From: Octopus vulgaris
Taxonomy: Eukaryota
DNA: 64,000 nt
Assembly (NCBI GenBank): GCA_951406725.2
Contig: OX597823.1
Span: 66,836,001-66,900,000, forward strand
Reading direction: 5' to 3'
In this document: piece after piece, positions 1 through 62,076 of the stretch
How positions within the stretch are numbered: position 1 is the first letter of the stretch
How the letters are laid out: each line of letters begins with the position of its first letter
Position numbers and translations under genes: made by a program
The notes under the pieces: generated by a model
The model's database searches: none
What the model was told of the DNA's origin: nothing
The model's input: only the letters and a program-made list of their open reading frames with translations

Positions 1-869
1 ATAACAGTTAACGCGTTTTAAAAGCGATATTACGAATACACCTAATTGTTGACAATCTTGAGATGCAAAACATCTCCCGAAAAATCTGATAAAAATTGAT
101 GTGTTAAATACGTAAGCCTCCTGGATTGGATGGAAAATCAGATATAATTAGATTAGATCAGAATTTCAATTTTATACATTACTAGGTTACTTATTCGCTA
201 AAAAAGGAAAAAAGAAAATGTTAATACCACTGAATTTCGCTTTCCGTTGCATATTCAGCAAAGGCCAATAACAGTAATTCGGTTTTGATACAAAGAAAAC
301 ATAAGGTATTATAAATAATGACACGGAAGTACACATATTTATGAATAAAACAATAAAATAAGTGACACGCTGACGTATACACACACACATACACACGCAC
401 ACGCACACATACCATATATACTGTAAGCTAAATAAAATAATAAAACAAGTGGCATACGTACATACACACAAACACACACCATATATATATGATTGTAAAT
501 AACGAAAGAAATATAAGATGACAGGGTTTCGTATTGCAAAATAAATTTTATCATAGTATATTTGTCACGTTATTTATAATTTGATACACTCCTTATGCTT
601 TTCGTTTATCGTACTATGTATTCTATATGCTTTCTAGAATGCTATATTAAGGAACATTTTCTATGAGTAACCCCAGATTAGATGAATCCATATATGATTT
701 GTTTATAGTGATCAATGTATGTGCTGTACATTAGCTCACTCTATTCATCAAATCATACAGTTGCACAAGTGTGCTATACATCAGATGAGGAAATGATCGC
801 AGAGCGACGTGAAATGAAGTGTTTTGCCTCACAACCACAATGCACCTTCACATTATATATATATATATA

Positions 870-1751
870 TCGAACCATCCACCAGTTATCCTTAGCAACT
901 TAGTCAGCAATGTAGGTAGAAGAATATCTTCAATTTCTTCGGACGAGGCAGCATTCCATAATGCTGCACCTTATTACGATAGCGCATTAAAGAATAGTGG
1001 ATTCTCGGAGAAGATCCAGTTCAACCAGCTTAATGCTAATAATAATGCTGCACGAAGAACTAGGACCAGGAAAGTTTTGTGGTTCAACCCGGCTTTCAAT
1101 TTGGCCGTAAAGACTAATATAGGTAAGGAATTTTTGAGATTAGTCTCTAAGCATTTTAAGCAGGGTCATAAATTCTACAGAATATTTAATAGAAAAACCC
1201 TGAAGGTTAGCTATTCTTGTTGCAGAAATTTCGCCTCTTACATTAGCCAACATAATAGGAAGCTAATTGAGATTAGACATGGTGCCGAGCCCATTAAGAA
1301 ATGTAATTTCAAAACGAAAGCTCCTGTCCGTTAGAAGGAAATGTCTAGTGAAAGGAGTAGTTTATAGAGCCAAGGTGCAAGTGGAAGGCATCATCGGAAT
1401 ACAAGACATACACAGGGGCTTCAGAAAATTCATTTAAAACAAGATTTTATTCTCATAAGAATTCTTTTAAATACCCAGAGAATAGGAAGAAAACCAGCCT
1501 AGCAAAATATGTCTGGGAACTAAAAGAAAGAAGCCCCACCTTTCAACGTGACATGGAGCATTCTGGACAGGGCGGCACCATACAGGCATGGAGCTTACAA
1601 ATATAATTTCAAGTGCAGACTTTGCCTATTAGAAACAATGCACATCTTATTCAAAGACAATAATTCTTTGAATCAAAGAAGTGAGTTAATGAACTTATGT
1701 AGGCACGCGGCTAAATTTAAAATGTCGAATATAAATATACCATATGGATAG
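870..1751 (+). pseudogene. PLE ORF remnant: RT thumb/linker + GIY-YIG endonuclease, about 4 frameshifts
   Basis: SNHPP..RRIS..SSDE..F...APYY..AL..SG, WFNP.FN..VKTNIGK.FL.LV.KHF, KVSYSC. Across frameshifts: C-N-F-x5-CPLEG-CLVKGVVY ... YTGASENSFKTRFYSH..SF ... TSLAKYVWELK ... WSIL ... CRLCLLE ... LNQRSELMNLCRH. Confidence 0.9.
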
Positions 1752-16623: not shown

Positions 16624-18555
16624 TGTTTCTTTATTAGCCACACAGGGCTGCACACAGATAGAACAAATTACAAGGTAGAGCTTTTCTTTTGAAGGTTTAA
16701 AAGAATAAAAAAATAATAATAATAATAATAAAATAAAAAATAAAATAAAATAAAAAAGGGGGGTCGATCAAAAGGGATCGTAAAAGGAGAGAAAGAGGAC
16801 AAAAAAAGGGGGGTTAAAAAAAAAGGGGGGAGGAAAAAAAATTGATCAATAGGGATCGTTATCACAGAAATGTCAATATGAAGTGTAAAGGGGAGGACAG
16901 GTGAGGTTTACCCGTGGAAAGAAAAGCCTACGGAAAAGACCACGGTAACCTCGGTCAATGAAGTCACATGTTATATTTCTTTTTTTTTTTTTTTGCAAAT
17001 AAGCAACTCTCTGTATTAATTTTTACGTTTCATACAATCATAGTCAAGGTGGCTTCGTCATTCATACGTGCCATCCTTGCTACATTCACCCATCTTTTTG
17101 TAAAACATTCACTAGACAAAACTTGCCTCTCTACTCTCACTTTTTCTTCAAGTGATACTTGAAGAAGTTGATGAGAGATTGACCAGAGAGGAAAGTGTTT
17201 GTCTCTAATCCTTTCAGACGCGTCCACCAGATACATTCTTTCGCCATAGCCACAAGTATGATAAAAATAGCTCTTCCTTCCCGTTTGAAGGAAGGAGGCG
17301 TGACGATATTAACGATAGACTCGGCGGATAAACCGACACGTCCCACACGTGACAGCAGTCGTTCGACATAAGCCCACAGGTGGGAAATTGCTGGACACTG
17401 CACGATTGCGTGCAGAGCGGTTTCGTCGCTCTGCCCGCATCTCGGGCAGGTCGGCCCCGTGTTTCTCGAGCCATGCCTATAGAGCTTATCCCGAACGGGT
17501 AGCGCTTCTCGGTAGCACCGCCAGGCCAGGGATCTCTGGAAGTTGTCCATAGGTCCCGGGCCGAAAGTCGTTTGAAACAGGCGGGTCAGGTATTCCTCGT
17601 CGACGCCCAGGTTTGCCCCGAGCTCGTCGTCGTACCTCCCCTCCACTAATCCCCTATAGAATGCTTTGGTTGTGTTGAAGTCACTCAAGGTCGACCCGGG
17701 ACGGCAGAGTTGCTTGAGAGCAACGCGACACTCGCGGTGCCATTCGCCCTTCTTCGGCCTCTTTTTGATCCACGACTGTAGTTCGGTCATGGAGACGAGT
17801 TGCGGGAATGCGTGCCTCACAAACGGCGACCACACCTGTTCACCGTCGTCTACATAGAGCCAGAGATGTCGCAGTCTCAGCGCGTGTCTGCGCATCATCA
17901 ACCACGGCATGCCCAGCCCTCCTTTTAACGGGTGTTGACAGCAAATGGATCGCCTGACCATCGGGACGCATCCTTTCCACAAGAAGCGAAAGAGGATGCG
18001 TTGTAGTTTGGTGATGGTAGGGTCGGGACAAGGTACGACGGTCAGGCGGTAGTAGATGACGGACGCGATGTACGTATTCGCCACCTCCGCTCGACCTTTT
18101 AGGGACAGTTTCCTCTCGGCCCATTGCCGGGCGAGAGTGACCACCCTACTCGTTATCTCGTTCCAGTTCTTCTCCACTTGGAGGTCCGGACCAAACCAGA
18201 ACCCGAGCAACTCAACCGGGCCGTCGGTCCAGCGTCCCACGACGGAGGCGCTGGTGGACGGCATGGGCTTGCTTCTCCAGGTGCCTAGTCGCAAGCCCAC
18301 TGACTTTTCCCGGTTGATTTTCGCTCCTGTCACCGCTTCGTAGTTTTTCAGTGTCTCGCCGACCAGCTCGATGTGCTCGTGGCTAGACACTATGACGGTG
18401 ACGTCGTCCGCGTATGCAGACACGCTCGTCCCGCATCCCAATTCTCGCGGGATGCCCCTTAGAGTCGCCAGCTTCCGCAGTAGTGGCTCAAGAGTCAATA
18501 CGTATAGAAGCGCCGAGAGGGGGCATCCCTGACGGACCGAACGTGCAATGTCGAA
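16624..18555 (-). mobile_element. 5'-truncated L1/Tx1-clade non-LTR retrotransposon inserted in a (GATA)n array
   Basis: (GATA)n on both sides (16561-16623, 18556-18606). 3' end reads ...ggctAATAAAgaaaca directly into (tatc)n. Coding part is far more GC-rich than the flanks. Confidence 0.92.
17030..18555 (-). pseudogene. ORF2 fragment: reverse transcriptase C-terminal half + zf-RVT-like Cys/His domain, one frameshift near 17140
   Basis: VRQGCPLSALLY, AYADDV (18403-18414), GAKINREKS, LSLKGRA, GGLG, CPRC...ETALHAIVQC. The reading frame continues as KVRVER...FTKRW in ORF 17030..17236 after a slip in an A-run. Confidence 0.9.
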
Positions 18556-19137
18556 AGATAGATAGATAGATAGATAGACAGACAGATAGATAGATAGATA
18601 GATAGCAGGGATGGAGAAAGTACAATTCAACCATTATCGTTTGTGTTCCTTTTTTGTTTTGTTTTGTTTTTCCTCTTTAATTCTAAGTTTAGTTCTCTGA
18701 CTATGCACTCGTAATAAGTTGTTATTTATTTATTCAGTCGTGAAGCGAGGAAATGAGATATAAATTTATGGTTTTTTTTTATTTTCTTTTGTCGTTCTGA
18801 AACTGCTGAAACGAAATAATGTTTAGATTTATAATTCATAAATTGGGGTGTAATTTATTTATATTAGACAGCCAGAGATATTCCGGTTGGTTTGATATCG
18901 AATGTCTTGATCGAAAATTAAGGGTCTCACAAAGTTGTGAAGTGACGTGTTAAAGTTAAAATATCCAGTCTTGCATTATTTTTAGCGAAATGATAATGTT
19001 ATGTTAAAGTGTGAAACCTTATACAATTAACAACTAAGTCAATACCACCGTTTTAATGACATGTAGTAACTTGCATTAAAGTTATTAATTGAATACAATA
19101 CATTATCATTTTTGAAGTAATAACACGTCATACATAC

Positions 19138-60450: not shown

Positions 60451-61124
60451 CACCAAAGTGGGCAACGTTAATACAATAAGTGGACGAAAATTGGGTATTG
60501 CTTATAGTAGTTTAAAGAAGTGGAAATCTATTACGAGGGATACAGCGTGTTACCGCTTGTTCATTTGTGATTAATAAATAGAGCAGGGAATTAATAAATA
60601 GGGCAGGTATGTATGTATATATGTATACATATAGAGTTTAGATTTGTATTGCAACAATAATAAAGGTGATGATAATGGTGATAATGATAATTGAAATGCA
60701 AAAGTCCCTGGGAAATTTTGTTTACAAAATTTCTAAATGTAGCCAAGCAATTACTGCATTAGCTAGTGTCAAAATACAGGTTTCTTGACATGTTCAACAA
60801 ACCGTGACGCCTAAACCAAAGACCATTCAACTTAAATAATTTAGTGAAGCCACGCACTGATAGATCAGAATACTGTTTGCAAAACTTAACATTCTAGAAC
60901 CTATAAAATGTATTAAGGCGCACATTTTAGCTATCTCATAACAGTTATAAGTGCCACCACTACTATATGAAGCTAAAGATTGCATAGTGTAGTGCATGAA
61001 AGTACCAGTTCAATCGGAATAACGTTTAATATTCATTATTTCATCATTTCATTATATTACCCTATATTATGTTAGTATAAAATTGAAAATAAAACGTAAA
61101 TCAAAGTTGGAACTCCTTCGATTA

Positions 61125-61171
<47 letters not shown>

Positions 61172-61179
<8 letters not shown>

Positions 61180-62040
61180 CAATAATTGAGGGTAAAATTA
61201 ATTAGTTATTAATCAATTTCACCAAGTAGTGTTCAGTATGTAAAAGGACCATTTAAGGCGTATTCAAAATATTACATTATATAATTAGGGCTTAGTAAAA
61301 TAAATTACTTTGCCACATACTGAAATTTTAGAAATAGCAGCCAACAGGTTTTTTAGCTGTTTCCACTACTTTAAGAAAAATTCTCCCAGATAATATTTAA
61401 TCAAAAATAACTCACGAAGATATGGAGGTAAAAAAACAAAATATCACAAGAAATGTCACGTTTCTAGATTAGCCGTAATAAAACTCAACGCCTTAAATGG
61501 TCCTTTTACATACTGAACACTACTTGGTGAAATTGATTAATAACTAATTAATTTTACCCTCAATTATTGATATTATAATTTCTTTCTCCCTGTTCTGTTA
61601 CTACGGTTCTCACCGTTATGGTATGTTTGCTAGATGGCTCACGAAGGTGGAAGGAGAAAGAACATGAATCTTCGCTTGTACAATTTGAATTTGCTAGTAC
61701 TGGCAGTTTGAAGGTATTTGTCTGAGGTGATACATTGTCGGACGAGTATGTTCATTTTTTAGTGCTTTCAAATCCAAAATTAAGAAATGTTGAGCTGGCG
61801 AAGGAAATGCTGAGTTTTATTTCGGCTAATCTAGAAACGTGACGTTCTCAAATGATCTTTGTACTTGTGATATTTTGCTGTTTTACCTCCATATCTTCGT
61901 GAGTTATTTTTGAGTAAACATTATCTGGGAGAATTTTTCTTAAAGTAGTGGAAATAGCTAAAAAACCTGTTGGCTGCTATTTCTAAAATTTCAGTATGTG
62001 GCAAAGTAATTTATTTTACTAAGCCCTAATTATATAATGT

Positions 62041-62042
<2 letters not shown>
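61172..62042 (+). mobile_element. TA-flanked hammerhead-bearing non-coding element with interleaved inverted repeats (A-B-A'-X-B')
   Basis: A 61172-61261 = rc of A' 61488-61577 (identical by eye). B 61272-61487 ~ rc of B' 61811-62042. (TA)n on both sides. Confidence 0.9.
61790..61851 (+). ncRNA. Type I hammerhead motif with A6G substitution (HHR7)
   Basis: ttgag-CTGGCGA-..gctgag(ttttat)ttcggc..-GAAA-cgt(g)acg-TT-ctcaa. Confidence 0.7.

Positions 62043-62076
<34 letters not shown>

Follow-up and report, generated by a model that had tools for sequence, protein, structure and literature searches.

The window, by which we mean the whole 64,000-nt stretch of Octopus vulgaris DNA analyzed, carries an insertion composed of two arms in opposite orientation, both of whose outer termini run into (TA)n (Table 1). 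Position 1 of the repeat unit, or monomer, is set at window position 61488 throughout. A BLAST comparison of the locus with itself recovered the anatomy proposed in the initial annotation, namely a direct unit preceded by an inverted segment in which the end of the unit (B′) is joined to its start (A′) through 10 nt; on the reverse complement of 61172-61487, unit 324-555 is followed by the 10 nt and these by unit 1-90. The direct arm lacks the 10-nt stretch simply through 5′ truncation. The outer terminus of the inverted arm (61172) is T2, the second of two fixed 3′ ends of the hammerhead family, and at the predicted hammerhead cut this arm has lost 16 nt, a deletion found in no other of 44 aligned segments. 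The window copy retains one mutated and one partial hammerhead motif, tandem arrays being present elsewhere in the family. A spacer of 10 to 11 nt joins position 555 to position 1 in most of the 30 best copies, and the two arms of the window copy differ at 8 of 246 sites. These observations make the B′-to-A′ adjacency a feature of the family rather than a chance event, and the alternative of an assembly artefact fails on the same two grounds. The window insert is one decayed copy of a large hammerhead repeat family.

The element was inserted into the TA run that terminates an older PLE insertion at 60650-61127, so the left half of its target is also the 3′ terminus of that PLE remnant. This left flank (60650-61127, plus strand) matches the 3′ noncoding end of the 775-aa PLE family described below (L158) at 71% identity across 531 nt, and a decayed hammerhead-like motif lies inside it near 60965-61010. 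Elsewhere in the window, a 498-codon LINE-type RT fragment (RVT_1 and zf-RVT) occupies 17137-18633 on the minus strand.

Table 1. Features of the insertion and its target in the window, with the basis of each assignment
Feature	Position	Strand	Basis
Left half of the (TA)n target	61125..61171	.	Sequence
Inverted arm, unit 1-90 ("tail")	61172..61261	-	90/90 identical to 61488-61577
Conserved structured 3′ module (10-bp helix around T1, hairpin immediately preceding T2), where the RT is predicted to bind and prime	61188..61342	-	Consensus fold
10-nt stretch completing the 565-nt monomer	61262..61271	-	Spacer shared by most of the 30 best copies
Unit 324-555 of the inverted arm, including the hammerhead's 3′ half	61272..61487	-	211/236 identical to 61811-62046
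Direct arm, unit 1-555, 5′-truncated, terminating at T1 (the first fixed 3′ end)	61488..62042	+	
Type I hammerhead motif	61790..61851	+	Sequence, family alignment, pair counts
Right half of the (TA)n target	62046..62072	.	Sequence

The repeat family and its hammerhead motif

A search of the 2.8-Gb genome (227 contigs) with the direct arm as the query returned 2,916 candidates, 40 of which were scored, and the intact hammerhead pattern matched at 2,149 places, its reversed control at 0. In the 30 best loci, monomers of 565 nt lie head to tail. Subfamily monomers measure 545 to 569 nt in the C1 sample, which comprises the first 100 pattern matches, all on contig C1, resolved into 52 position-ordered loci; because an intact hammerhead was required, this sample is biased toward arms that cross the cut. 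Across the family, its sister included, monomers span 545 to 585 nt and carry one type I hammerhead each. Copies in (TA)n take the form of partial tandems, of arrays that reach 16 units within one (TA)n site and mostly have proper ends, and of tail-out inverted pairs, in which a partial tandem is accompanied by an inverted 5′-truncated copy.

The monomer is low in GC (33%), and one natural monomer folds far better than its shuffles (z −5.5). No long ORF was found in monomers or across their junctions, the longest stop-free stretches in three natural tandems being 54 to 101 codons. The family copies therefore bear out the noncoding tandem monomer of ~565 nt with one hammerhead that had been predicted from the window. 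The competing possibility that A′ and B′ are the ends of a longer coding PLE found no counterpart, as no copy examined ran into a coding PLE. A sister family ("family B"), found via the 3′ end, has a monomer of 585 nt with its own hammerhead and is ~70% identical to the main family over the alignable part. It was considered as a coding parent and rejected, being another noncoding hammerhead monomer. Many of its copies (L091-L110 and L231-L260, a query-biased sample) are fold-backs of ~340 bp that turn near one short hairpin. More hammerhead families, with a long stem II and a short, mostly palindromic stem III, were seen in flanks (L092:2011-2089, L095:3123-3216, L097:2165-2268, L119:123-216 and 447-540, L182:290-382, and L206:1198-1290), and the genome seems to hold many retrozyme-like lineages.

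In the window motif, stem I is formed by 61790-61794 and 61847-61851, the core lies at 61795-61801, GAAA lies at 61834-61837, and the predicted cut falls at 61846/61847, next to a short, near-palindromic stem III. The core reads CTGGCGA, with an A-to-G change at 61798; CTGACGA is found in 34 of the 44 aligned segments and CTGGCGA in 3, with 7 unscored. A6 of the hammerhead core matters for catalysis. Rfam at its gathering score gave no match in the window, and the lone window motif folds no better than shuffles (z −0.07). All fetched loci together yielded 78 distinct motif variants, a few of which belong to unrelated families, with CTGACGA (35), CTGATGA (30), CTGAAGA (10), or CTGGCGA (3) as the first box. 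When 24 hand-picked variants were compared, 96% of cells paired, against 28 to 44% in slid controls, and 14 changes affected both sides of a pair, a number reached by 0 of 500 shuffles; relatedness among the sequences inflates such pairing statistics. Stem I shows covariation when the main and sister families are compared; lineages ~70% identical still have the core, and their stems covary. The self-complementary stem III is far more stable as a duplex (−11 to −15 kcal/mol) than as a hairpin (0 to −0.5), which fits the dimeric hammerheads described in PMC4209133. The G10.1-C11.1 pair, highly conserved according to the same source, is replaced in most variants, by A·A in 38 and U·U in 20 of the 78. 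Judged from its sequence, a family lacking this pair may cleave poorly.

Fixed 3′ ends, the (TA)n target, and coding PLE families

The 3′ ends of copies cluster ~192 to 205 nt (T1) and 295 to 300 nt (T2) past the cut, ~100 nt apart, and the 5′ ends are spread. Tail-out structures make up 40 of the 52 loci of the C1 sample: 35 combine T1 with T2, 2 combine T2 with a shortened T1, 1 has T2 on both arms, and 2 are complex (one scored as T1+T1). Among 57 window-like loci, a set selected by similarity and hence biased to long arms, 33 are tail-out (27 T1+T2 and 6 T2 with another end), and 19 further loci selected for array length include 16 tail-out structures, 14 of them T1+T2 (ends as printed). 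Overall, T1 is paired with T2 in 76 of 89 tail-out loci and like with like in only 2, where independent choice would give about half. The sister family follows the same rule in 5 of 6 pairs, as scored by a rough regex, and single-orientation copies terminate at either T1 or T2. These counts argue for a separate RT start site at each of the two DNA ends of an insertion. In the consensus fold of 10 natural copies, T1 lies within the 10-bp helix and T2 just after the hairpin, and 3 of the 35 pairs changed on both sides.

The targeting of (TA)n suggested by the window copy holds for the family, since 150 of 168 outer 3′ ends lie within (TA)≥4; a target duplication is unreadable within such a repeat. 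It had also been anticipated that other copies would be circular permutations or tandem arrays in (TA)n. The arrays exist, as described above; free circular permutation was rejected because 3′ ends are confined to T1 and T2.

Three coding PLE families obey the one-end-per-arm rule with tails of their own (12/12 pairs). They are a 727-aa family (6/6 pairs, tail of ~72 nt), which is Hydra-like; a 781-aa family (L142-L151; 2/2 pairs, tail of ~40 nt), which is Neptune-like; and a very young, also Neptune-like 775-aa family (L261-L279, on many contigs; 4/4 pairs, tail of ~27 nt). These affiliations come from motifs only. The corresponding tail of the monomer family is ~100 nt. The 727-aa family was reached by a search from a fragment of its ORF at window positions 813-1334 (plus strand); it comprises 13,305 candidates, many with open frames, and has a minimal hammerhead of its own and a tandem unit of 3.4 kb, and its protein has no match in Pfam. 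The other two were found through a GIY-YIG search. The 781-aa family has a long open frame upstream, along with a hammerhead-like motif that has TTGATAA as its first box, and in the hammerhead-like motif of the 775-aa family CCCGAAGA replaces the usual box. Dozens of copies of the 775-aa family are at 100% (rounded) protein identity, which suggests that it is likely active now.

T1+T2 pairing is the known "tail" signature of PLEs and is the same in the three coding families, and we conclude with high confidence that the element is a non-autonomous PLE or non-LTR retrozyme. Between the monomer and the three coding families, which are three out of thousands of candidate loci, only short weak matches were found. 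Since they have no sequence in common with the monomer, the PLE that drives it would be either unsampled or one that recognizes structure. An origin of the copies as solo pseudo-LTRs or 5′-truncated ends of an unseen coding PLE, or as a MITE or satellite that spread at the DNA level, bypassing RNA, is extremely improbable. The small number of coding families examined closely leaves some room for the former, and the short fold-back copies of the sister family do resemble MITEs; nevertheless, neither origin accounts for head-to-tail units that lack an intervening ORF and accumulate in arrays, and variable 5′ truncation with asymmetric ends is a misfit for a cut-and-paste MITE.

Priming of the two arms and the nature of the template

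The initial annotation attributed the inverted arm to a strand switch by the RT; as a switch on nascent cDNA, the idea was mostly not borne out. A fold-back or self-priming model of this kind is given in PMC3846280: having made cDNA, the RT folds back and takes that strand (or an antisense RNA) as its template. Among 55 simple T1+T2 loci, however, 18, the window copy included, have arms of which neither is contained in the other, so that each holds sequence absent from its partner. Moreover, 45 of the 55 junctions connect positions more than 25 nt apart, and fold-back leaves the presence of T1 on one arm and T2 on the other unexplained. It is favored by the 5 of 55 junctions that are near-exact palindromes, a frequency above chance (p 0.005) which indicates that some fold-back occurs, and by the palindromic junctions of rotifer PLEs (PMC3846280). 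Non-nested arms thus refute fold-back as the general route, and we consider it very unlikely to be the source of the inverted arm, although it survives for a minority of copies. By BLAST ends, 25 of 56 junctions overlap by at least 2 bases. We also identified 79 locus-private variants common to all copies of their locus, in 28 of 52 scored loci (the count omits 6 complex loci and clusters under 4). A single haplotype per insertion is what two primings would leave if both used one RNA or used sister RNAs, and its presence in both arms, together with non-nested arms, favors two primings on RNA over fold-back. Dual priming is therefore the probable origin of the paired arms. An A-to-I editing footprint in the templates was considered and rejected, as shared private changes are balanced between A>G (20) and T>C (18).

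The template had been proposed to be a circle or head-to-tail multimer. The tandem monomer of ~565 nt stands, but the tandem junction alone is not diagnostic of a circle because coding PLEs in this genome form tandems too. T1 and T2 lie only ~200 and ~300 nt past the cut, yet arms cross the cut freely; 47 of 98 arms in the C1 sample are longer than one monomer, and 10 are longer than two. A cleaved linear monomer was rejected as the template because 5′ ends do not accumulate at the cut, which arms routinely cross. Most apparent 5′ ends at the cut extend a few bases past it, and two (L201 and L048) stop there. Four runs presumed to be RNA yielded contigs that cover the monomer; contigs cannot reveal ends or circles, and no monomer-bearing dataset is recorded as RNA. 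Where a site has three copies, it was the unpaired unit that differed in 15 of 44 cases (21 loci, after removal of 18 complex ones), as identical units at the time of insertion would predict. Overall, we lean slightly toward a circular template.

A linear alternative would use the same PLE machinery and dual priming on an uncleaved read-through transcript of a tandem donor, with long arrays arising through copying of the donor array and unequal crossing-over and with a hammerhead that is weak or merely trims transcripts. In the Anolis Poseidon system, hammerhead cleavage is reported to be dispensable and unprocessed RNA is the main substrate in vitro, with no reads ending at the cut (PMC11167929), as this alternative would have it. 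The noncanonical closure of stem II and the multi-unit tandems made by the 3.4-kb coding PLEs point the same way. The arrays themselves provide evidence on both sides. Linear copying predicts haplotypes shared between arrays, and one such pair (L284 and L285+286, with the same majority haplotype) was found, but 24 of 26 arrays carry fixed changes that set them apart from their closest match among the other sampled arrays, which a linear donor could produce only through a one-unit bottleneck; some donors may lie outside the sample. Arrays L289 and L191, with 6 and 5 full units, show zero difference from their own majority. The haplotype of L192 has no relative above 98% among 40 scored of 1,560 candidates, which also speaks against a linear donor; relatives at 99% are present for L201 (40 candidates scored). 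Variants of unit rank common across arms, which linear copying should leave, are not in excess, and the retention of the hammerhead core across lineages ~30% diverged speaks against this alternative as well. Of 182 within-array variants, 143 are singletons and 39 occur in at least two units, some at homopolymer edges and others periodic (units 2, 4, and 6 in L283; 1 and 3, and 2 and 4, in L290; 4, 7, and 10 in L281). Periodicity of this kind counts in favor of linear copying; it could also stem from block duplication after insertion, from conversion, from a multimeric template, or from errors of assembly. Taken together, we regard the linear alternative as unlikely. Recurrence at every second or third unit was seen in L283, L290, L281, and L287 and may reflect block duplications or dimer and trimer templates; long arrays show signs of duplication after insertion.

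On balance, we think it likely that this retrozyme family was pasted into (TA)n by a PLE RT-endonuclease priming twice on RNA, which was probably a circular monomer. A tandem copy would be transcribed, and neighboring hammerheads would pair through stem III and excise a monomer, which would be ligated into a circle where the lone hammerhead is largely inactive. A PLE protein dimer would then bind the structured T1-T2 module and cut both (TA)n strands, and the two DNA 3′ ends would be extended from T1 and T2, respectively, each RT traveling a variable distance and sometimes several turns. Joining of the two cDNA ends, often through a few shared bases, would give the tail-out structure, and long arrays may afterwards have been partly enlarged or homogenized by local duplication or conversion. 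More tentatively, the insertions could be the footprint of a hypothetical last step of retrozyme mobilization, in which a PLE dimer, acting in trans and guided by RNA structure, primes both DNA ends on one hammerhead-made circle, at two sites 100 nt apart, and travels round it for many turns in a single event.

Comparison with retrozymes and Penelope-like insertions

The retrozyme-like identity proposed at the outset is well founded, as the family consists of noncoding tandem monomers with a type I hammerhead in each. Like the non-LTR retrozymes of metazoans, it combines low GC content and co-occurrence with PLEs with thousands of copies as monomers, dimers, and multimers (PMC7229834). Its monomers (545 to 585 nt) exceed the 170 to 400 nt given in that paper and fall within the 51 to 972 nt of a recent preprint (10.64898/2026.07.22.740005). 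In the latter, 24 of 57 Xenopus families have a TE homologue, whereas no homologous PLE pseudo-LTR was found here among three coding families. Retrozymes elsewhere are known as circRNA, and the present family is known from genomic copies. Their mobilization by PLEs was proposed in both sources, in PMC7229834 via circRNA; the insertion anatomy resolved here, with its (TA)n target, two 3′ ends, and tail-out inversion, is not described for retrozymes in the parts of these two sources consulted. Plant LTR retrozymes, which have type III hammerheads in LTRs and a 4-bp duplication, were rejected as a match because the motif is type I and the units run head to tail.

An autonomous PLE was likewise rejected, as an ORF for RT and GIY-YIG is absent. 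The novelty suggested for a TA-targeted, fold-back family does not extend to its layout: the tandem-plus-inverted, one-tailed, (TA)n-targeted arrangement has already been described for PLEs. According to the sections of PMC3846280 and PMC8557442 considered here, insertions of EN+ PLEs comprise partial tandems and an inverted copy, carry the tail on one end only, and are biased to (TA)n. They differ from the present family, which has no ORF, a tail of ~100 nt rather than 30 to 40 nt, and arrays of up to 16 units; the one-tail rule, counted here in 76 of 89 loci, is worded as "optional" or "often" in those sections. The Poseidon protein of Anolis, a predicted dimer, cleaves both strands in vitro and extends them from two internal start sites of the RT, which bound the tail (PMC11167929), a close parallel to T1 and T2. 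A hammerhead near the ends is a further feature that the octopus family has in common with EN+ PLEs. Chlamys MRC1 is also a non-autonomous PLE with multicopy head-to-tail insertions. Non-autonomous PLEs of Chlamys, as a rule, have 3′ sequence in common with an autonomous family, and they come from a clade without canonical hammerheads (PMC8557442), whereas in the octopus family a hammerhead is present and sequence comparison gave no partner. The type I motif, with its short palindromic helix III, long helix II, and extra nucleotide after the CUGANGA box, resembles the PLE-type dimeric hammerheads of PMC4209133.

Our literature search found no description of this family, which may be listed in the supplements of PMC7229834, PMC4209133, or 10.64898/2026.07.22.740005 or in Repbase or Dfam, and the word "ribozyme" is absent from the main text of a recent octopus repeat annotation. 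Retrozyme circRNAs are known, and their insertion by PLE machinery has so far only been proposed (PMC7229834; 10.64898/2026.07.22.740005). The octopus family is young, numerous, and stereotyped and resides beside three coding PLE families, one of which has dozens of near-identical 775-aa ORFs. With it, experiments could address both the copying of a circle by a PLE enzyme and the use of the two RT start sites, one for each DNA end of a single insertion. The class to which it belongs is already known, and the record it preserves of insertion by PLE machinery is unusually clean.
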